64,000 bases of DNA, from contig CAZFDM010000242.1 in the NCBI GenBank assembly GCA_964517975.1, positions 143 to 64,142 on the forward strand, given 5' to 3'. The stretch is from an uncultured Syntrophaceae bacterium (GTDB lineage: Bacteria > Desulfobacterota > BSN033 > UBA1163). The notes under the pieces are model-generated. The model made no database searches, was not told where the DNA came from, and worked only from the letters and a program-made list of their open reading frames with translations. The translations under genes were made by a program, and so were the position numbers. How positions within the stretch are numbered: position 1 is the stretch's first letter; each line of letters begins with the position of its first letter. Positions 279 through 62,460 of the stretch are shown here, one piece after another.

Positions 279-1721
279 TCAGGCGGAAGAGAAGAGGAGG
301 AGTTTTTGTCGAGCTTCCTTATAGATCAGGAAATGGGGATGATTCTGGGTGATCTTGAGAAAGAGTTTTCGGGCGTGTTCAACGACTCTTCCTGCAAGGT
401 TGAGGAGGTGGAATCTCAGGGCCTTGAGGCGCAGAGGCCACCAGCTCTGGGGCAAGGCTTCTCTTTTGAGGATCGAAAGGAGGTTGTAGGCCAGGGTATT
501 GAGTCTCCACCAGGCCGCATTGACAAAGAAGTATTTCGAGGGCAATACTCCCGCAGCCAGATCATTCTTCATCACATCATGGATCTTTTCAATGGTTCCA
601 CAGCGTTCTCTCTGCCACCGAAGCAATCTCTCCCCATCCCAACTCCACATGTTGGTGACGACCGAAAAATAATGATAAGGATTGCCATCCCGGAAGAGTT
701 CCCCCTGGGAAGGGCGGATTCGGATGGCGAGGTAGCGATCCGGTTTCATCGTCTTTTTCCTGGAAGGTTTGCTGGGAACAAACTCTACCTCTGCCCACTC
801 TTTTCGTCCTTCGATCAACCCTTGATCCGTGATCTTTCGCAGAGGTTTCCAGGCCTCCTCAGGAAGGGCTTCAATGGCTGCCCTAAGCTCCTCAGTCATC
901 TCAGCACTAATGGCATATTCGATTCGGGGCCTTTCAGAAATCTCTTGACGACACCAATCCAGAAACTCATGGACATAGGCTGCGGAGTCCGAACGAAATC
1001 TGACCAGACGAACAGTGGGAGGAAGAGCAGCAATGGCCTCCTTGGCTACTCTCAAGATATCCATCCGAGCCGGAACATTGCCATCCCGAAACTCATCAGC
1101 CACAATCAAATCCTGCTCCACCCAATAAGCGGTCATAGGCTGATAACCCTTCTCTCCAAGATAAGTGAAAAAGGCCTCCTCCTTCTGGGATGGGATGATC
1201 ACCGCATCCAGATCAATCGTGGCCTTCCAGGGGCCTTCCTTTCGAGTCGCCTTCCGAATCAAATCCTTTTGAACCTCTCTAAGCCCCTTCAACTCTGCCG
1301 TCTCCTCAGGAATAAAGGCCTTCTCAGGAAGTCTCCCCGAAAGGAGCTTCTCATCATGAAAGGCATGGAGAAACCAACGGGCAGCCTCTGGAGAGGGAAC
1401 GTGCAACCCCAACTTCTTCAACCCCTCATCTTCTCTGAGAAGATCCAAATCCTCCACACACTCTCCTCCCGAAGCAAAAAGGGAGATAAAAGATTCAATA
1501 TAGTCAGCTTCCTGATATTTTCCTTCCTTCTGAAGAATACAGAGATGCTTCTTTATCGATTGAGGAAGGCCCAAAGCCCGAAAAGTCTCCATCACCAATG
1601 GAAGACCCGCAAAGGAGGTAAGAAGTGATTTGGATGAATTCTCAATTAACTGGAAAGGAAGAATCCCTTGTGCTATACTCATCTTACACCTCCTGGGTGA
1701 AAAGCCGGTTGTTGCACCCAA
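279..1721 (-). CDS. DDE-type transposase (IS4/IS1380-like family)
   Basis: 480-aa ORF flanked by terminal inverted repeats; the overlapping 440-aa plus-strand ORF is an antisense shadow. Confidence 0.75.
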   Translation of the reverse strand: MGATTGFSPRRCKMSIAQGILPFQLIENSSKSLLTSFAGLPLVMETFRALGLPQSIKKHLCILQKEGKYQEADYIESFISLFASGGECVEDLDLLREDEGLKKLGLHVPSPEAARWFLHAFHDEKLLSGRLPEKAFIPEETAELKGLREVQKDLIRKATRKEGPWKATIDLDAVIIPSQKEEAFFTYLGEKGYQPMTAYWVEQDLIVADEFRDGNVPARMDILRVAKEAIAALPPTVRLVRFRSDSAAYVHEFLDWCRQEISERPRIEYAISAEMTEELRAAIEALPEEAWKPLRKITDQGLIEGRKEWAEVEFVPSKPSRKKTMKPDRYLAIRIRPSQGELFRDGNPYHYFSVVTNMWSWDGERLLRWQRERCGTIEKIHDVMKNDLAAGVLPSKYFFVNAAWWRLNTLAYNLLSILKREALPQSWWPLRLKALRFHLLNLAGRVVEHARKLFLKITQNHPHFLIYKEARQKLLLFSSA

Positions 1722-1944: not shown

Positions 1945-2355
1945 TTAATAACAGGGCCTAAATTTTGGTAAACTAAACTCCTCGGTGATGTCCTCCCATG
2001 TTACCTCTACGGGCATCTCACATGTGACCTCATCAGGCTGGCAACCCACGATGTTTGTGAGAAGGCGGGGTCCTTCTTCCAATTTCACAATGGCCACCAC
2101 ATAGGGAAGCTCATTCTCAAATCCGGGGTGATAGGCAACATGATACACTGCATAGGTATAAACACGGCCTTTTCCTTCTGAGACGATCCATTCCGTCTCC
2201 CTCGAAAAACATAGAGGGCAAAAGAGAGAAGCGGGCCAGCGGACATGGCCGCACGATTGACATCTCTGAAATCTCAATTGATGGACTTTGCAGCCAGCCC
2301 AAAAATCTTTATTGTCATCATTTACATTGGGAAGCGGTTTGTTATATTTACTCAT
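1945..2355 (-). CDS. DUF35 family Zn-ribbon/OB-fold protein, the usual partner of SCP2-type thiolases
   Basis: CxxC...CxxC zinc-ribbon (RCQSCGHVRWPASLFCPLC) followed by an OB-fold-like C-terminus; immediately downstream of the thiolase gene. Confidence 0.75.
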   Translation of the reverse strand: MSKYNKPLPNVNDDNKDFWAGCKVHQLRFQRCQSCGHVRWPASLFCPLCFSRETEWIVSEGKGRVYTYAVYHVAYHPGFENELPYVVAIVKLEEGPRLLTNIVGCQPDEVTCEMPVEVTWEDITEEFSLPKFRPCY

Positions 2356-3519
2356 TTACGACCTCCTGAGGATAATACAGCTATGGGTTTGAAGGATTCC
2401 CCCATTATCACTGCAAAGAATGATCTCTGGAGTCTTTGTTTTTGTGGGTGGTCCAAGTTGTCTCTCGCCACATCGACCCATTAACTGCATCGCTCCTTCG
2501 GATAGTGGAGTAAGACCCATATAGTAGGCTTCGGAGAGTAGACCCCCAGAGGTATTGACCGGCATTCTTCCGCCAGGTTCGATGGTGCCGTTTTTGAACC
2601 AATCTTCACCCTCGCCCGGCTCAAAAAAACCATAATCCTGCAACGTGATTTCAACGGTGTAAGTAAAGCAGTCATAGATCTCACAGGCATCGATATCCTT
2701 TAAGGTAATGCCCGCCATCTTTAATGCCATCTCCCCTGCCTTTTTAGCTCCTGTTGGACCAGCCAGGTAGGTGGCCTGGTGGACTTCAGAGGATGGGTTA
2801 TGTTGTCCCATCCCCATGATTAAAACAGGAGGATGTCTCAAATCGCGTGCCCTTTCAGCGGAAGTGATGATGATTGCCCTTCCCCCATCCGTGATCAAAC
2901 AATTATCAAGAAGACGAAAGGGTTCAACAATCCACCTGGCCTTGTAGTACTCTTCAAAGTTCAACGGGCGGTTATACATGGTGGCGGCGGGGTTAAGATT
3001 AGCCCATTTTCTCTGTCCCACAGCGATATGTTTCCAAGTCTCTGGACCTGTTTGGAAGGTATGCATGGCTCTTCGCGCAGCCAATGCATAACCCCCAACG
3101 GCTCCGAAATGGCCAAATACCGCATCATCGGCAGTCATTTCCAAAAGCATCCGCTTCATGCTATCACTCGAAGAGGCATTATGGCCATAGGATAAAAGGA
3201 CATACTTGCAAAGACCTGCCTCGAGCACGCCAACTGCGTGCTGAAGGTGGCTTCTGGATCAATTAGCATCCTGGCTCATATAGGTCGGAGAAAGTCCCAG
3301 ATACTGAGCCACCAAATAAGGAGTGACAAGGGCCTCATTGGATCCAGGGGGAAACACCCGATAGCAGATGAGCCCGTCAATCTCTTCTCTTCGGAGACCC
3401 GCATCAGCGATGGCATTGACGCACGCCTCCAGATGAAAACTCAGCGAGGTTCGACCGGGAACATGCCCCTGAGGGGTATAGCCTATTCCGACAATGGCAT
3501 ACTTATCCCTTAAGCTCAT
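2356..3519 (-). CDS. SCP2/archaeal-type thiolase with an in-frame TGA (3259-3261) at the catalytic nucleophile position; putative selenocysteine thiolase
   Basis: ORFs 3259..3561 and 2356..3228 are in the same frame, separated only by TGA. The context N-[TGA]-SRSHLQHAVGVLEAGLCKYVLL aligns with the thiolase C-x-S-G...A-I...G..DVVL active-site block. Start at M(SLRDKY) 3519 has a GGAGGAG RBS. Total 387 aa with U87. Confidence 0.6.
3224..3242 (-). promoter_or_regulatory. Candidate bacterial SECIS hairpin 16 nt downstream of the thiolase UGA
   Basis: mRNA AGCACGC-AGUUG-GCGUGCU: 7-bp stem with GUU in the apical loop. Similar GGU/GUU-loop hairpins follow the UGA of grdB (61342-61356) and prx. Confidence 0.45.
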
Positions 3520-3554
3520 TGAAACTCCTCCATTAACATAATAAGTATTACCTT

Positions 3555-4844
3555 TTAACATCGCGAATGTTTAACAACAAATTCAAGGGTCCCAGCTCGT
3601 TCCATCAGGGTGGGGATATGAACAAAGGTTGAACAATTATCCCTAAATGTTTCAAATTGAACCTCCTTACCATGGACAATGGTGCTTTTGATCGTAGTCT
3701 GTCGCATCCGCAAGCAAAGAGCAAATTCCATAGGAAGGTCCCACCCAAAATATCGAACTCTTGCGATGGTTGTTTCAGGATCCAACATTTCACGTTGGGG
3801 AAGATTAAAATTATTTCTTTCATTCCATATTCTGATTCTTGACGCCCGACGTTCCTTTATATTTATCCCTAAGGGTCTGATAGAAATGCGGAAATCGCCA
3901 TGAAGGATATTGGTAGGATAACCTTTATCTTTCTCCCAGGGTAATCGGGTGCATCCTATTTTTAAAAGAGCTTTGCAAGGTGCCAAACCACTCAAAGCAA
4001 TATCATCAGCCCGTGATAATACATAGTGATTAGTCTCGATCCCAAAGACCAATGTATGCCACTTCAGGTAAGCAGGCCCACATGTATAATTCGTATAATG
4101 ATCTTCTTCAGGAATATAATAATGATCATAGAAATCCTGCATGTGGAGCAAGAACACCTTCTCTTTTAAATATGTCCAGGGCATATGTCCTATCTCTGTG
4201 TCACCGAAGTAATAGGTAGCCAAATCCTCAAGCGTATGAATTTCATAAGGCCAACCTTCCAACTCTGCAGCCTTCTGTATTTCTCGTGCAACACATTGAT
4301 GAATCTGTTCATCTACGGCCCACTTAGCGGGATTGGCCGGGATGATCACCTCCATATCCCCTCGATCATATTTTGAGCCTGAAGTTTTGCCGAGGCTGTG
4401 AAAATCTATCATCATATCGGGCGGGAATGATTTAAAAAGTCCTCCCAAAACGAGACGTTCAGTCTTTGTAAGACTCGTCATCGAAGATCGAAACTCATTC
4501 GAAACAAATCCTTCCGGATTCACGACAGGTATGATGATGACAAGTTGTGTCTTTCTTATCTCCTCTGCATCATCCTTAGATAAGTATTGAATGACCTCAG
4601 GTCCCACCACACGGGTTCCTAACTCCTGGCCGTGCCTTCCTAAAGTAATCACAGCAATCTGCTTATCATCATTGGAAATGTCCTTATCTGTGATAAAGAC
4701 CGCTCGAATCTCCCAACCATCAGGAGACCGACCAATGACTTCTTTGTGCGCAATATTTCTATTTTGGGCAACCCAATCATCCAACCACTGATAGATTTCT
4801 CTCAACCCTTCTTCTCCCATTGGAATATGATCAAATGCTGCCAT
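3555..4844 (-). CDS. M14-family zinc carboxypeptidase-like protein
   Basis: HGQE (HxxE) zinc motif, VVNPEGF motif, ~430 aa. Confidence 0.5.
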   Translation of the reverse strand: MAAFDHIPMGEEGLREIYQWLDDWVAQNRNIAHKEVIGRSPDGWEIRAVFITDKDISNDDKQIAVITLGRHGQELGTRVVGPEVIQYLSKDDAEEIRKTQLVIIIPVVNPEGFVSNEFRSSMTSLTKTERLVLGGLFKSFPPDMMIDFHSLGKTSGSKYDRGDMEVIIPANPAKWAVDEQIHQCVAREIQKAAELEGWPYEIHTLEDLATYYFGDTEIGHMPWTYLKEKVFLLHMQDFYDHYYIPEEDHYTNYTCGPAYLKWHTLVFGIETNHYVLSRADDIALSGLAPCKALLKIGCTRLPWEKDKGYPTNILHGDFRISIRPLGINIKERRASRIRIWNERNNFNLPQREMLDPETTIARVRYFGWDLPMEFALCLRMRQTTIKSTIVHGKEVQFETFRDNCSTFVHIPTLMERAGTLEFVVKHSRC

Positions 4845-4899: not shown

Positions 4900-5676
4900 C
4901 TATTTCCCTTTCCAAATGGGTTTTCTTTTTTCCATAAAGGCATGGATCCCTTCGTGGGCGTCCTCACTAGTGGACAACCTGGTCATAATCTCACTATTGA
5001 GAATAAATCTCTGACGGAAGGGCATATCGATCATCTGGTAATAGAAATTCTTCCCCATCCGGATGGCCACAGGGCTTTTATCAATTAGTTTTTGAGCAAA
5101 GGCGATGGTTTCCTCCTCTAACTTTTCTGCCGGAACCACTTTATTAACCAGACCCAATCGCTCCGCTTCTTTCGCATCAATCATATCACCACTCAAAAGC
5201 ATCTCCAGAGTCTTTTTCTTGCCAAGGCCATAACTTATCGGGATGATAGGCCCCGTGCAGAGCAATCCAACGTTAATAGCCGTTGTCCCAAGTTTAGCGT
5301 CTTCAGCCATAATGGCAAAGTCCGCAGCGGCCACCAGTCCCGCGCCATTTGCCACTGCATATCCATGGACCATAGCAATCACCGGTTTCTCCATAGAAGC
5401 AATGGTAAAGTGCATCTGGTCCATAAGGGTAAACCATCGATGGTACTCTAACGATGTCTTTCCGTGAAACTCACTTACATCGATCCCCGTTGAAAAGACC
5501 TTACCTGCTCCTTTGATAATGACGACTCGAACCTCTCCGTCTTCATCCAATTGGCGCAATCCAGTATTCAGTTCCTCGGCCAATCGAGTATTGAAGGTAT
5601 TAAACTTTTGTGGTCGATTTAATGTAATGATCCCGATCTTTTCTTTTTTATCTACTAAAATGGTCTCAAAAGACAT
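4900..5676 (-). CDS. Enoyl-CoA hydratase/isomerase (crotonase family)
   Basis: Crotonase-fold motifs (IIKGAGKVFSTGIDV, oxyanion-hole Gly residues), 258 aa. Confidence 0.85.
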   Translation of the reverse strand: MSFETILVDKKEKIGIITLNRPQKFNTFNTRLAEELNTGLRQLDEDGEVRVVIIKGAGKVFSTGIDVSEFHGKTSLEYHRWFTLMDQMHFTIASMEKPVIAMVHGYAVANGAGLVAAADFAIMAEDAKLGTTAINVGLLCTGPIIPISYGLGKKKTLEMLLSGDMIDAKEAERLGLVNKVVPAEKLEEETIAFAQKLIDKSPVAIRMGKNFYYQMIDMPFRQRFILNSEIMTRLSTSEDAHEGIHAFMEKRKPIWKGK

Positions 5677-5804: not shown

Positions 5805-6008
5805 ATGCACAAGATTATCGAAGCAATATATGAAAATGGTGTTTTAAAGCCATTAACAGCACTGGAATTAAAGGAGCATGAAAAAGTTGAAATCATCATT
5901 AAAGAAAAAACCAGTCCGGCAAAGATGAGCCAGGGAATTGTTAAAGGAAATCCTAAAGTCATCGAGGATGTTGCCCTAAACCCCCAATACAGTTGTCTGG
6001 AGGAATAA
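5805..6008 (+). CDS. DUF104-type antitoxin
   Basis: 67 aa, MHKIIEAIYENGVLKPL N-terminus typical of AF2212/DUF104 antitoxins; directly upstream of the PIN gene. Confidence 0.5.
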   Translation: MHKIIEAIYENGVLKPLTALELKEHEKVEIIIKEKTSPAKMSQGIVKGNPKVIEDVALNPQYSCLEE

Positions 6009-6509
6009 TTGATTTTGTCAGAGATCGTAGATAATGCAGAAGTATTTATAGATTCAAATATTTTCATTTATCATTTCTCAAGATTTGAAAAGTTTGCAGA
6101 TGCTTGCTTTCATTTTTTTCAAAGAATCGAAGAGGGTAGCATCAGCGGTTATACCTCCGTACTTGTTCTCGCTGAAGTCCTCCACCGGTTAATGATAATT
6201 GAAGCTTCAGAAAAGTTTGGGTTTTTACCTAAAGAGGTTACAAAATATCTTAAAGCGAATCCTGACAAAATAGCCTCTCTCACTGACCATCTTGATTCAA
6301 TTTCTTATATTGATAAACTTGGCATCTCCATCCTAACAGTGAGCCTCAAAGACATTAAGTTGAGTTCTGAATTTAAAAGGAAATTTATGCTATTTACTAA
6401 TGATGCCATAAATCTTGCTATAATGAAAAATAACAACATTGCTCATCTTGCCTCTAATGACAGTGACTTTGAGAAGGTTGACTTCCTAACCCTATATAAA
6501 CCGCAATAA
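6009..6509 (+). CDS. PIN-domain toxin (VapC-like)
   Basis: FIDSNIFIY acidic-residue PIN signature, 166 aa, directly follows the antitoxin; the only plus-strand gene pair in the window. Confidence 0.65.
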   Translation: MILSEIVDNAEVFIDSNIFIYHFSRFEKFADACFHFFQRIEEGSISGYTSVLVLAEVLHRLMIIEASEKFGFLPKEVTKYLKANPDKIASLTDHLDSISYIDKLGISILTVSLKDIKLSSEFKRKFMLFTNDAINLAIMKNNNIAHLASNDSDFEKVDFLTLYKPQ

Positions 6510-19778: not shown

Positions 19779-21146
19779 CTATCCTTTTATTTTTTTAACA
19801 GCTTGCTCGGCTGCAATTAAAATTGGGTCTAAAGGTGCTGAGAAAGGAGGCGCATAGGCAAAATCGAGTTTCGAAATCTCATCGATCGTCATCTTTTGAT
19901 GTAAGGCTACTGCCAATGCATTGATCCTCCTCGCCACCCCCTCCTGGCCTGCCATCTGAGCTCCTAATAGTCTTCCATTTCTCCGATCAAAGACTAACTT
20001 AATGAGCATTCTTTTTGATCCAGGCATATATCCCACTTTTGATTCAGCCTCAATTGTCTGTGAATCAACATCGAAGCCATATCGTTTGGCAACTTGAAAG
20101 CCTAAACCTGTAAAGGCGACTTCCAATTCAAATACTTTGAAAGCAGCCGACCCCACCACTCCATTAAATGTAACCTTACCCCCCGCAGCATTTTCGCCCG
20201 CAACCCTTCCTTGTTTATTGGCAATATCTCCCAAGGGGGTGTGGACCCAATCTTGACTTATTAGATTAAAGACTTCACAACAATCTCCTGCTGTATAGAT
20301 ATCTTTCAGATTTGTCTCTTGGGAAAAATCTGTTCTTATCGCTCCGGTCTTTCCAAGCTCAACCCCTGCCTCTCGGGCAATTTCAACATTAGGCACTACG
20401 CCGATAGCCATCAGGACCATATCTGTAGGATATTCTCCTTTTGTGGTCTCAATAGAAGTCACCTCTCCCTGGCCATTTAGATGAAAGGCTATGGGTTCTT
20501 GGTTGGGGAGAAAGTGGACTCCATTTTCTTGAAGTTCCTTCAATATCCTTTCTGAGATCTCCCTTTCAAGATTTCCTGCCGGCAAATCCCTGCGACAGAA
20601 TAAAAATGTTTCTATTTCTCTGTATCTAAAGGCTTCACACATCTCAAGGCCAATAAACCCTCCTCCAAGGACGGAAACCCGTTTGGGTCTTTTCTCATCT
20701 ACATAGGTTTTGATACGTATCCCATCCTGAAGATCCTTCAGGGTGAAAATGTTCATGGCATTGCTTCCAGGAAGGTTGAGACGTCTGGATCGGGCACCAG
20801 TGGCAATGATGAGTCTGTCGTAAGAAACCCATTGGGTTTCTGATTTTGATAAATTCACAACTTCGATCTTTTTTACCTCTGGATCAATCTTCGTGACACG
20901 GTGTTCCGTCAGGACATCGATATTCTGCATCTCTTTAAATTGTTGAGGAGTTCGAACCACCAATCTTTTTTGATCTTTTACTACATCTCCGATGTAGTAG
21001 GGGGTCTCTCAGGAACCATAGGAGATGAATCTTCCCTGCTCAAACATAGTAACTTCGAGCTCAGGATTAACTCGTTTTGCCCTTGCTGCTGCGCTCGGAC
21101 CTGCTGCGGAACCACCGATGATAAGGAGTTTCTCTTTCTTTCCCAT
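19779..21146 (-). CDS. CoA-disulfide reductase/NADH oxidase-family flavoprotein with Sec (TGA 21009-21011) replacing the redox-active Cys
   Basis: The ORF track starts at TTG 20963. Hand translation of the upstream sequence gives MGKKEKLLIIGGSAAGPSAAARAKR...FISYGS-U-ETPYYIGDVV, matching the SF(A)NC-ALPYYIG active-site block. ATG at 21146 has an AGGAGA RBS. Perfect 9-bp hairpin 9 nt after the UGA. Confidence 0.65.
20979..20999 (-). promoter_or_regulatory. Candidate SECIS hairpin of the Nox-like selenoprotein gene
   Basis: tactacatc-tcc-gatgtagta perfect palindrome starting 9 nt 3' of the UGA. Confidence 0.4.
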
Positions 21147-21164
21147 CTTCTTTTCTCCTAAAAG

Positions 21165-21678: not shown

Positions 21679-22281
21679 TTAAAAAGCCATCTCCGGTTTC
21701 CAGACCTTCCACACCTTTCCTACCAGGTCTGGACCAGGTTTTAACGTGGGCTTGCCTGGCTGCCATCCGGAAGGCATGACCTCGCCCGTTGCACGCACAT
21801 GCTGAAAAGCCTTAACCTGCCGGATCAGTTCGGGAACGTTCCTCCCGACCGGCGGAGCGACGGTCTCCATCGCCTGGATGACCCCGTCCGGGTCGATCAA
21901 AAAACGGCCCCGAATATTTACCCCTGCTTCTTCATCGTAGACACCGTAAGCACTTCCGATACGGCCTCCCGCATCTGAGAGCATGGGAAAGGGGACTCCA
22001 CCTTTCACCATCTTCGAGAGTTCTTCCTCCTGCCAGATCTTGTGGGTAAAGCGACTGTCTATGCTGCACGAGAGAACTTCTACCTCAAGCGATTTTAGCT
22101 CTTCGTATTTGGCGGCAACTGCCGACAGTTCTGTGGGTCAAACGAATGTGAAATCACCAGGATAAAAACAGAGGATTACCCACTTTCCTCTGTAATCTGA
22201 AAGTTTGATGTTCTTAAAACCTCCATCCACATAAGCACTTGCCTCAAAATCGGGCGCTGGTTTTCCAACTTGGGCTATCAT
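21679..22281 (-). CDS. Peroxiredoxin (AhpC/Prx) with Sec at the peroxidatic position (TGA 22138-22140)
   Basis: ORFs 22138..22386 and 21679..22011 are in frame. The junction reads [13 protein letters not shown], cf. FTFVCPTE. Start at [12 protein letters not shown] has an AGGAGAGGAGGG RBS. Confidence 0.8.
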
Positions 22282-22744
22282 TTTAAATCCCTCCTCTCCT
22301 ATTGGACTTGTTTTAATGGCTTCTGGGGTTGTTGGTAAAATTGGTCCCTTTGCCGGTTTCACACACCCATCCACTGCTTCGACCATAATGACTCCCTTCC
22401 TTCCTTATTAGAATTTTAGAATTTGAATCTCAATCTCAATAAACTCCCAAACGAAAAATTACCGCTGTAGTTTAACAAACACTTATAACTTAACGAAAAT
22501 GAACCCACTCCCTGGGCTAAAGCTCAGGGTTTCAGACCTGTGGCATGTCTGACATAAACTTCGACCATTCCAGACATGCCGGAAAAGGCTTCCGCTTCGC
22601 TCCGAAAGGATGCCATTCATCCCCAGGCTTAAAAGCCTAGGGTTTTCTGGCATGGTTTATAAATAGACTTCTAAAATCAACAATTTCTATTTTCCTGTGA
22701 ATGCAGGAATCCAGTAAAAGTTCTTTGAAATTAAAAAATTCTGG

Positions 22745-54436: not shown

Positions 54437-54763
54437 TCAAATGACAAAATCTCGAGCTGCTTTAATCATGGCCCTCATGTTCTCCGCCGGAGTCATCCCA
54501 GGAATGTTTCAACCGCCACGAAGAAGAAGACATCCATCCTTCCCTGCTTTCTGCAAGGTCTCTTTGGATTTTTCTTCAACCTCCTTGGGTTCACCCATTG
54601 CTAATAAGGTTGTATCAATATTTCCCATCAAACAAAATTTTGGCCCTAATATCTTTCTGGCCTCTTCAAAATCAACCTTACTGTCGAGACTTAAACCATC
54701 CACCCCTGTTTGAGCCATCAATTCAAGTCGGTCAGTAATATTTCCACCCTCAACACTCTCCAA
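54437..54763 (-). pseudogene. C-terminal remnant of an MtaA/URO-D-family methyltransferase paralog with in-frame TGA at the zinc-ligand Cys position
   Basis: Reads ...GPKFCLMGNIDT...KDGCLLLRGG-[TGA]-NIPGMTPAENMRAMIKAARDFVI, cf. WPGCDLWPVVPKENMETLIKAA in 47177..48214. A stop lies immediately upstream of the first codon, so about 250 aa of N-terminus are missing. Confidence 0.5.
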
Positions 54764-57255: not shown

Positions 57256-57756
57256 TTAAGCATTCGATAAACACTTCTTTCGAAGTGCCTTGAGTTCTTG
57301 ACTTATTTTCTCAATCTTTTCCGGCTCAATTGCCATCGCCCAAATGCCTACTTGTTCTTCATAGACATCCTCAGGGATTGCGTCTCGAACCTCAGGCTCC
57401 AGGATATGATAAACAGGGAGTCCCAACGAGACTCCTGCCAATGGTCCAGAAAAAGAAGGATCTCCAGTAGTCACGGTTTCTGCTGTAATCATCACTCCAT
57501 CCAGATCGCTTGCACCAAGGACTACAATGATATCATCCTTAGGGATATTATCCTTTTGGGCTCTTTCCGCAATACTCTTCACCTGACCTTGATTTTCTGG
57601 ATCCATTGTTCCTGCAGCCGTTCAGACAAAACACTCTGTTACCTTAAAGGCGACATTGGCACCTGCTGCTTCAAGACATGTAGCAATGGCAGGACCTTGA
57701 ACTCCATCCCGCTCACCAATGATGATGGCTGTTTTGCCTTTGAGCCAATTATCCAT
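57256..57756 (-). CDS. grdA: Glycine reductase complex selenoprotein A (GrdA), Sec at TGA 57622-57624
   Basis: Hand translation upstream of the ORF-track start gives [56 protein letters not shown], the canonical CFVUTAAG motif. C-terminal half matches GrdA ([26 protein letters not shown]). GGGAGG RBS. Confidence 0.85.
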
Positions 57757-57797
57757 ATCTTCACACCTCCCTTTCTTCTACTTCTTAAATTTATTTT

Positions 57798-60980: not shown

Positions 60981-61134
60981 ATGACCCTCCTTTCAGATAA
61001 TATTTGGTTTTTCATCCAAAATTATGAAAAATTAAATCACCTCCTTTCTCATAAAGTTGAAGATCCCATTTCTTTAATTAAGTGATGGATAAAGATTACT
61101 GCATTCCTTCTAAGGTAAAGATGGTTGGTCTACT

Positions 61135-62460
61135 TACCTCTGTTTGGAGTATTTCTAAAGCCCGCAATACATACTTTCGGCGCAAGGCCTTTTCTTGATC
61201 TTTAGTTAAAACGGAATTTCCAACCACGCAGGTAATACTTTGCCCCTGCAAGATTCGATTAACTCCAACCATTTGGGCTACATTCGGAACTGCAGTAATT
61301 TGAACAACAGGGATACCTCTCTTCTCAATTCTTGATGCGATCGTTGCACCGCAACGAGTGCTGGAGCCTCAGGTTGAGGTGAGAATAACAGCATTAATTC
61401 CTCCCCGCCTCTTGATCTCCTCTCCCATCTCCTCCCCCATTTCAGCACATCTTCTCGAGATGGTGGCATTGCCGGAGGTAGAGAAAAACGATGGATGGAG
61501 TTTTCCGATCTTCCCCTCTTTCATAAGTTCACGCATCACATCTACTGGAACCAGTCGATTTGGATCTCTCAAGACATGCACTGGGAAATAACCTGTATGG
61601 GCGATCTCGTAATTAGAGGAGTCGTAATTCTCTGGGAGAAAAGTATCTATATCATAAATAGCCCAACGGAGATTTCCCCTCCCACTCAATCCATGAGGGT
61701 TCCCTCTGGGGACCAATCCCCCATCACTAATCAGGACAATTTCACAGGTGCGAAGATCCTTGAGGGGTGGAGGAGGCTCCACTCTTTCAAACTTTGGAAG
61801 AATGACCTCGCTCTCAAAGGGGTCTCCCTTAATCTTGGCCAGTAGCTTATCGACACTTCTTCGGGCAGCTGTTTTATCCGTATACTCATTTCTAAGAAGG
61901 TATCGAGTAAAATAATGAAATTCCTCAGGTTTCGGGAGATTCTCCCTGGAGACCAGATAAACTCCTTTCTCTCCAGATATTAGTTGAAAGGCAAGTTTAA
62001 CCATTCGCTCTATGCTGATTGCCATATCCCTTGCGCTGTTTCCAGTCTTACAGATATAGGCATATTTTCGATACATCTCCACGCCAGGATTTTCTTCATG
62101 CATCCCTGTAATCGCTGGGATGCCAAGTTTTTCACCGACTATCTTACAAATCGCGCCACAGGCCACTCCATACCTTCCCGCTGCAAAGGCTGGGCCTGCA
62201 AAAAAGAGGTCAGGTTGATAGGGCTCAATCAATTTCAGGCCTTCTTCTGAAACGAGTTCAGGATTTTTTGAAAAGGTGTTATCCCCGCAGATGAGCGTCG
62301 CTATTACATTGGCTTTATCCCCCAATACTTTTTGTAAAACAGCCCCAGGACCTATTGGGCCTGCCATTACTATAAAACCAATATCTGCTTTTTCCTCACC
62401 CCCCACTTGACCAAAAAATTGATTTAGGTAATGGACCACTTTCAATTTTTTTTGTACCAT
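61135..62460 (-). CDS. grdB: Glycine/sarcosine/betaine reductase component B beta-type selenoprotein (GrdB/GrdF/GrdH family), Sec at TGA 61369-61371
   Basis: MVQKKLKVVHYLNQFFGQ N-terminus. ORF-track stop after ...GINAVILTST is followed in frame by U-GSSTRCGATIASRIEKRGIPVV...ALEILQTR, cf. GrdB ILTSTUGTCTRCGAT. cgttgc-acc-gcaacg hairpin 12 nt after the UGA. Confidence 0.85.

Follow-up and report, generated by a model that had tools for sequence, protein, structure and literature searches.

A thiolase-fold gene with a conserved UGA at the nucleophile position, a probable selenoprotein of anaerobic bacteria

Gene structure

We analysed a 64,000-nucleotide stretch of DNA (hereafter the window) from an uncultured Syntrophaceae bacterium (assembly GCA_964517975.1, contig CAZFDM010000242.1), which carries a gene for a thiolase-fold protein whose reading frame is crossed by a UGA codon, very probably one that specifies selenocysteine (Sec). 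The initial annotation had described two open reading frames (ORFs; 3259..3561 and 2356..3228) lying in one frame and parted by a TGA; direct reading confirmed this arrangement, and all of the coordinates and sequence details given there were correct. Joined across the TGA, the gene comprises 387 codons on the minus strand (Table 1), from an ATG at 3519 to a TAA at 2358–2356, with exactly one in-frame TGA, at codon 87, where the residues read DAN-U-SRSHLQHAVGVLEAGLCKYVLL. Homologues begin at an equivalent MSLRDKYA or MNLKDKYA, comparable to the ATG of the window. A gene for a DUF35 protein (136 amino acids, ATG from 2355) follows directly after the stop codon, and an insertion sequence (IS) element lies beyond it (transposase 1721..279), both as previously annotated.

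Conservation of the UGA codon

A search of the joined sequence against 5.8 billion proteins returned thousands of homologues, the best 120 of which were analysed. These are full length, share 68–83% identity and are conserved on both sides of the TGA column, which is Cys in 120 of 120 (within 'DANCSRSHLQHA'). The assignment of the UGA to the nucleophile Cys, position 87 of 387, thus holds in the alignment with the invariant Cys of the homologues. Because prematurely ended gene calls would rank below full-length homologues, we searched DNA directly with a degenerate pattern of 39 bits, back-translated from [D/E]-A-N-TGA-[A/S]-R-x-[H/Q]-[L/V/I]-x-[H/N]-A. Scanning contigs of one genome per species (1.2 x 10^12 positions), for which about two chance matches are expected, yielded 82 loci. 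All 82 are orthologues, and 81 are intact, with at least 86 codons open upstream (contig permitting) and about 300 downstream. The sole decayed copy (L002; DSBG01000137.1, ~3350-4300) has a frameshift past '...AIVVTTL' and an internal deletion that takes most of the C-terminal domain, ahead of the DUF35 gene. Nearly all of the loci belong to Thermodesulfobacteriota (Syntrophales, Smithella, Desulfobacterales, Desulfatiglandales and Desulfomonilia), and two come from strains in culture, Desulfatibacillum alkenivorans DSM 16219 (L027, NZ_FQZU01000013.1) and Desulfatitalea alkaliphila M08but (L047). The orthologue comparison proposed in the initial annotation, for a TGA or Cys at this column, has therefore found both.

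A metagenome scan with a Cys-form query gave 79 usable relatives, with TGA in 60, TGC in 10 and TGT in 9. Sec and Cys forms are intermingled in a neighbour-joining tree built from 257 distinct proteins, with at least 19 state changes, and Cys forms are up to 92% identical to Sec forms, which is the pattern normally seen in a Sec/Cys family. Three metagenome-assembled genomes (MAGs) hold two Sec-form copies each on separate contigs (L049/L057 in JAGGSD01, L021/L072 in JAFDAS01 and L040/L076 in JAWOFF01), which makes this a multi-copy family in some genomes.

One Sec form (L069, CAZAQM010000051.1) occurs in a MAG labelled Dethiobacter, a Firmicute; it reads 'ANUAR' and has the hairpin variant CCACGC-UGUGA-GCGUGC. 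Its presence there could be due to horizontal transfer or a binning error.

A hairpin resembling a bacterial SECIS element

The initial annotation had noted a 7-bp hairpin with an AGUUG loop (3242-3224) 16 nt past the UGA, which we confirmed. Across 126 distinct Sec-form sequences the conserved core is GCACGC-NGUNG-GCGYGC, held in a fixed register with the G and U of the loop invariant. The model for the bacterial selenocysteine insertion sequence (bSECIS) requires an apical loop of 3-9 nt on a stem of 4-16 bp with G in the first two loop positions, a UGA-to-loop distance of 16-37 nt and a minimum free energy (MFE) of ≤ -7.5 kcal/mol (PMC13188914). The hairpin of the window agrees with this model on all four points: it has a loop of 5 nt, a stem of 7 bp, a distance of 23 nt and an energy of -19.1 kcal/mol. 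A longer fold of 53 nt (-22 kcal/mol, z = -2.87) was equalled by 5 of 200 shuffles; its lower stems vary between orthologues, and RNAalifold retains the apical pairs only. Paired cells make up 90.7% in the true register and 14-58% in slid registers. In Rfam and tRNA scans of the window there were no matches, and no bacterial SECIS family reached the Rfam gathering score.

As compensatory changes were not found, the RNA evidence consists of synonymous-site constraint and not of covariation. Synonymous third-position entropy in 122 Sec-form genes averages 1.26 ± 0.39 bits. Taken in 7-codon windows along the entire gene, it falls to its minimum of 0.47 bits at codons 93-99, and the seven lowest-entropy windows all overlap the hairpin. 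Cys forms at the same codons have 1.0-1.85 bits, that is, they are unconstrained. Gly97 is encoded by GGC in 125 of 125 Sec forms and in none of 8 distant Cys forms (Fisher p = 5e-13, a value in which independence is overstated, the sequences being related), and Val96, the source of the GU in the loop, is invariant in Sec forms and L, I or V in Cys forms. Distant Cys forms retain only 2-4 of the 7 pairs. With the constraint limited to the hairpin and to Sec forms, selection on the hairpin apart from the protein appears strongly supported. The full 7-bp hairpin is also found in nine TGC or TGT forms (L083, L084, L088, L120, L123-L125, L128 and L129) that are 88-92% identical to Sec forms; these look like recent Sec-to-Cys (or Cys-to-Sec) conversions that carry a relic or pre-existing SECIS.

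Selenocysteine decoding in the host

The initial annotation had also listed four recognised selenoprotein genes with comparable hairpins in this window. Each of the four is there and has its TGA where Sec is known to lie (Table 1). Downstream hairpins with G in the first loop positions accompany all but GrdA, in which the fold is weak; the apex in the peroxiredoxin (Prx) gene, CGGC-AGUU-GCCG, resembles that of the thiolase-fold gene. Since the window holds these four genes, the host reads UGA as Sec, and they suggest that the genome also has the Sec machinery. Ordinary genes of the window also end in TGA, so the codon has not been reassigned.

A 5'-truncated remnant of about 107 codons of a UroD/MtaA-like methyltransferase (54437-54763, minus strand) has an in-frame TGA at 54511, in '...DGCLLLRGG*NIPGMTPAENMRAMIKAA', at a spot where this family presumably has a Zn-ligand Cys. 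It is without upstream coding sequence, and the fold past its TGA is weak (-9.1 kcal/mol). The remnant may be the relic of a further Sec gene.

Table 1 Features of the window discussed in the text
Feature	Position	Strand	Evidence
Sec-containing thiolase-fold coding sequence, 387 codons, U87 (predicted)	2356..3519	-	translation; Pfam Thiolase_C_1 E 4.8e-38; PDB 4u4e E 4e-63; 120 full-length homologues
UGA, predicted Sec codon 87, thiolase nucleophile column	3259..3261	-	Cys in 120/120 homologues; TGA at 82 genome and 60/79 metagenome loci; 7yvy alignment
Apical bSECIS-type stem-loop AGCACGC-AGUUG-GCGUGCU, 7 bp, 5-nt loop	3224..3242	-	bSECIS criteria; synonymous entropy; missing in distant Cys forms
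Extended lower helices around the apical hairpin, not conserved across orthologues	3209..3256	-	MFE -22 kcal/mol, z -2.87
Ribosome-binding site GGAGGAG, 5 nt before ATG 3519	3525..3531	-	read from sequence
DUF35 partner, C4 zinc ribbon CxxC-x10-CxxC and OB fold	1945..2355	-	Pfam OB_ChsH2_C 6.5e-22, zf-ChsH2 8.6e-11
M14 carboxypeptidase-like gene, upstream, N-terminal match only	3555..4844	-	Pfam Peptidase_M14 2.5e-11
Enoyl-CoA hydratase (crotonase), upstream	4900..5676	-	Pfam ECH_1 8.3e-57
DDE transposase (DDE_Tnp_1_4) of IS element	279..1721	-	Pfam
GrdB, LTSTUGSSTRCG, TGA 61371	61096-62460	-	TGA at known Sec position
GrdA, CFVUTAAG, TGA 57624	57256-57777	-	TGA at known Sec position
Peroxiredoxin (Prx), FTFVUPTE, TGA 22140	21679-22404	-	TGA at known Sec position
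CoADR/Nox-like flavoprotein, SYGSUETP, TGA 21011	19779-21164	-	TGA at known Sec position

Fold and active site

Besides the Pfam match to Thiolase_C_1, sequence comparison with the PDB ranked 4u4e first (E 4e-63, 34% identity), followed by Ltp2 (6ok1, 1.6e-50) and Sal (9myr, 4e-47). The next matches were true thiolases (Pyrococcus furiosus 7yvy, BbsB, the archaeal thiolase of 6esq and SCP2 thiolases) and PhlC acyltransferases. When the N-terminal domain was compared with the PDB by itself, it added no alignments to those of the full-length search. The predicted structure of a Cys-form homologue (pTM 0.84) led to the same order in Foldseek, with TM values of 0.73-0.80 to thiolases. In the thiolase and condensing-enzyme superfamily, the acyl-accepting nucleophile Cys lies between strand N-beta3 and helix N-alpha3. 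In the predicted model, residue 87 falls after strand 80-83 and before helix 91-101, and Sec87 aligns with the Cys of 'EAACAS' in the P. furiosus thiolase.

Invariant in the 120 homologues are the Cys at column 87, Y281-D-C283-F, N322 and Tyr336. The Tyr336 column corresponds to Tyr344 of Ltp2 and to the GHP His of thiolases ('SEAYYMG' in the window, 'ARGHPVG' in 7yvy). SCP2 thiolases combine a nucleophile Cys with HDCF, whereas the SCP2-thiolase-like proteins (SLPs) lack a nucleophile and have YDCF. In Sal, Gly stands in place of the nucleophile and the motif is Y302-D-C304-Y, whose Tyr serves as the base and whose Cys serves as the acid; Ltp2 has Y294-DHF and Tyr344 (Rolfe et al. 2025, PMC12329534). 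The protein of the window has the thiolase fold and a filled nucleophile position (Sec/Cys87), as SCP2 thiolases do, but the HDCF loop is YDCF in 120 of 120, which keeps the acid/base Cys and replaces His by Tyr, and the catalytic His of GHP is the invariant Tyr336. The Tyr base in YDxF/Y with an acid, as in Ltp2 and Sal, is represented by the invariant Y281, C283 and Y336; the invariant Cys or Sec at the nucleophile position, the free-standing DUF35 protein and the lack of a steroid-catabolic cluster around the gene set it apart from these aldolases. In its sequence, then, the family appears to keep the thiolase Cys pair with both His replaced by Tyr. The description as an SCP2-type thiolase in the initial annotation is plausible but not fully supported: the fold and the nucleophile position agree with it, and the YDCF motif, the Tyr in place of the GHP His and the nearest solved relatives, which are 4u4e and the two aldolases, do not.

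Among 124 diverse full-length relatives (E < 1e-41, 50%-identity library), Cys stands at the nucleophile column in only 3, all of this family. The remaining relatives have S, T, A, G or V at this column and nearly all have YDxF/Y. Judged by these alignments, it is Cys/Sec87 that distinguishes this family within a large thiolase-like clade that appears to be nucleophile-less.

Interpretation

The evidence strongly supports the view that one 387-residue thiolase-fold selenoprotein is encoded. We are highly confident that the UGA at codon 87 is decoded as Sec, and consider it very probable that the gene truly encodes Sec and that this Sec occupies the nucleophile position in an enzyme of the thiolase fold. 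Translation would read codon 87 as Sec by means of a SECIS within the coding sequence, with the apical loop starting 23 nt past the UGA, which would recruit SelB with Sec-tRNA(Sec) as in known bacterial Sec decoding. Some observations weigh against this view: the hairpin stem is kept by identity without covariation, with RNAalifold keeping three G-C pairs and the middle pair being A-U in 68 and A.C in 44 of 112 sequences, and a tRNA scan together with motif searches for SelA, SelB and SelD found neither selA/B/C/D nor tRNA-Sec within the 64-kb window.

As to the chemistry, the thiolase-fold protein would form a heteromeric complex with the DUF35 protein, by analogy with BbsAB, the archaeal complex of 6esq, PhlABC, Ltp2 and Sal. 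The selenolate would attack the carbonyl of an acyl- or 3-oxoacyl-CoA to give an acyl-selenoester enzyme intermediate, Cys283 of YDCF would protonate or deprotonate the acetyl-CoA enolate, and CoA would resolve the selenoester, freeing the acyl group. Sec is ionised at neutral pH, and for this reason the family may dispense with the Cys-activating His, here Tyr. We lean slightly towards covalent thiolase-type chemistry through such an acyl-selenoester. Several findings count against it. The N-terminal domain falls below Pfam Thiolase_N, and no NCBIfam model is matched at cutoff (best PRK06158, 283 bits compared with 421). The nearest solved structures are aldolases or, in 4u4e, a protein that lacks the nucleophile, and both thiolase His positions are Tyr, as in the aldolase Ltp2; the Cys forms, too, are without the activating His. 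In addition, a hydratase precedes the gene in the window and no dehydrogenase lies close by, an order that would also suit a hydratase/aldolase pair.

It is possible, though less probable than the covalent route, that the protein is a genuine selenoprotein that works, like Ltp2 and Sal, as a retro-aldolase or lyase, in which Tyr281 would supply the base and either Cys283 or Tyr336 the acid. In that case Sec87 would serve in another role, such as binding of the substrate or aldehyde product, general acid/base catalysis or a selenenylsulfide switch with Cys283. The position of Ltp2 and Sal as the closest solved structures after 4u4e, the lack of a nucleophile in nearly all diverse relatives, and the place of the window gene behind an enoyl-CoA hydratase without a dehydrogenase nearby are all in keeping with an aldolase. 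Yet in the characterised aldolases of the clade this position is taken by Gly or some other non-nucleophile, which Rolfe et al. hold to rule out thiolysis (PMC12329534), whereas several hundred sequences of the present family have only Cys or Sec there, a hallmark that sets the family apart from its relatives. Catalytic nucleophiles and redox residues typically show such exchange between Cys and Sec only, and the hydratase is linked in just 13 of 162 loci.

Returning to the decoding of the UGA as Sec, explanations without Sec are far less probable. One is that the UGA either acts as a stop, so that a peptide of 86 residues is made and translation may or may not re-initiate for a C-terminal protein, or is read through as Cys or Trp. 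Gene callers do yield exactly two such fragments, but the split would cut the N-terminal thiolase domain and lose the conserved active-site residue; past the TGA there is neither a ribosome-binding site nor a conserved start, the first in-frame start being a GTG inside a hairpin arm. We reject stop and re-initiation on these grounds, together with the placing of the TGA precisely at the Cys column and the SECIS-type hairpin; the four standard selenoprotein genes of the host, and the ordinary genes of the window that TGA terminates, likewise speak against this reading of the codon. Just as improbable is that the hairpin is a mere by-product of the conserved peptide QHAVGVL. The identity of every stem position without covariation would fit this, as would the hairpins in some Cys forms. 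These Cys forms, however, are as close to Sec forms as recent conversions would be, distant Cys forms encode a similar peptide while losing most of the pairs, and Val96 varies among Cys forms; we reject the by-product explanation because the freezing of synonymous third positions occurs only within the hairpin and only in Sec forms.

Least probable of all is a pseudogene whose TGA arose by nonsense mutation or by a sequencing or assembly error: the codon is one base from TGC and TGT, an IS element lies near the gene and the related locus L002 is truly decayed, but this explanation is rejected on the recurrence of the TGA in otherwise intact frames in 82 species-level genomes and 60 metagenome contigs and on the interspersion of Sec and Cys forms, besides which an identical sequence was recovered in at least four independent samples, the protein is strongly conserved on either side of the TGA and a constrained RNA element lies downstream.

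Genomic context

The DUF35 gene lies directly downstream on the same strand in 144 of 162 related loci, and clustering of neighbours across the 162 found nothing beyond DUF35 consistently linked. The M14-like gene is linked in 12 and the hydratase in 13 of these loci, in the closest relatives only; L163/L164 have the M14-like gene in the same order. In the two isolates, Pfam identified groESL, a response regulator and an acyl-CoA ligase as neighbours. The conserved unit is a two-gene cassette, and its context points to no substrate.

The M14-like protein has 429 amino acids, and its Peptidase_M14 match covers the first ~110 residues only. The IS element with the DDE_Tnp_1_4 transposase flanks the cassette, 220 bp downstream, and has the same position on an independent contig (L163). 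At 5805-6509 on the plus strand is a two-gene pair that resembles a putative antitoxin/PIN-toxin module.

Annotation and novelty

Public gene calls split the gene of the window into an ORF of 86 or 100 residues and another of 267 residues (L163-L166), and the protein that scores highest in the 50%-identity library (P0121) is a C-terminal fragment of 267 amino acids. Sec forms are systematically mis-annotated as fragments, and metabolic reconstructions of syntrophic and sulfate-reducing degraders miss or mis-score this enzyme. Hidden by these split calls, the family is widespread in anaerobic degraders of fatty acids, hydrocarbons and aromatic compounds (Syntrophales, Desulfobacterales), and the Sec form occurs in no fewer than 80 species-level genomes and in the majority of close metagenomic relatives.

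The initial annotation had placed thiolases outside the canonical selenoprotein families, and published inventories agree: no thiolase-fold family is among the 119 selenoprotein families of a May 2026 review (PMC13188914 Table 1), and no thiolase-fold selenoprotein is in a 2022 review (PMC9312934), the Sargasso, GOS and Olavius surveys, Haft's preprint or deep-Sep. None is in the main text of BSepDB or in a deltaproteobacterial study with its supplements, a listing in other parts of these sources being possible. A literature search found no paper that combined 'selenoester' with 'thiolase'. This appears to be a new selenoprotein family, of a fold and presumed chemistry not previously associated with Sec, although it may be listed elsewhere.

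Nearly all known selenoproteins are oxidoreductases, and if the proposed chemistry is true, selenium biochemistry extends to acyl transfer and C–C chemistry through a natural selenoester. The chances seem evenly balanced that this is the first natural enzyme of the thiolase and condensing-enzyme superfamily with Sec as covalent nucleophile, using an acyl-selenoester for C–C cleavage or formation in a non-redox use of selenium. The close Cys relatives offer a natural experiment for the kinetics of Sec and Cys nucleophiles, and the prediction is directly testable in the two cultured strains that carry the gene.

Comparison with known systems

With recognised bacterial selenoproteins (Prx, GrdA/GrdB, SelD and CoADR-like proteins) the family shares a UGA at the catalytic Cys, Cys homologues, a bSECIS within the ORF and enrichment in Thermodesulfobacteriota. 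It differs from them in its fold and in its presumed chemistry, which is acyl transfer or C–C cleavage and not thiol-redox. A thiolase of Clostridium kluyveri, described by Hartmanis and Stadtman in 1982, reportedly contains selenium as non-specific selenomethionine and not as UGA-encoded active-site Sec; to our knowledge, it is the only earlier 'selenium thiolase'.

SCP2-type and archaeal-type thiolases that occur with DUF35 (3zbg of Leishmania mexicana, 7yvy, the thiolase/HMGCS/DUF35 complex 6esq of Methanothermococcus thermolithotrophicus and BbsAB, 7pxp) have the same fold (TM 0.73-0.80) and share the filled nucleophile position, the acid/base Cys of xDCF and the Asn of N-x-x-GG. BbsAB and the archaeal complex also have a separate DUF35 zinc-ribbon/OB subunit, as here. 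The protein of the window differs from these thiolases in having Sec for Cys, YDCF for HDCF and Tyr for the GHP His, at 18-23% identity, and neither HMG-CoA synthase nor bbs genes were found near the gene by neighbour clustering at the 162 loci. The 'putative thiolase' 4u4e of Sphaerobacter thermophilus is the best PDB match, but reads 'AVGGSS', without the nucleophile Cys; trypanosomatid SLPs (5ab4-7) share YDCF and likewise lack this Cys.

The steroid side-chain retro-aldolases Ltp2 (6ok1) and Sal (9myr) are the closest characterised structures (E 1.6e-50 and 4e-47, 29-31% identity). Shared features are the Tyr of YDxF, a Tyr at the column of Ltp2 Tyr344, a Cys at the column of Sal Cys304 and, here by analogy, DUF35 binding. 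Sal, whose nucleophile position is occupied by Gly, is incapable of thiolysis (PMC12329534), in contrast to the invariant Cys or Sec of the present family. In Ltp2 and Sal, DUF35 is fused to a MaoC hydratase and the enzymes belong to steroid catabolism, whereas here DUF35 is free-standing, the hosts are strict anaerobes and the neighbouring genes are variable.

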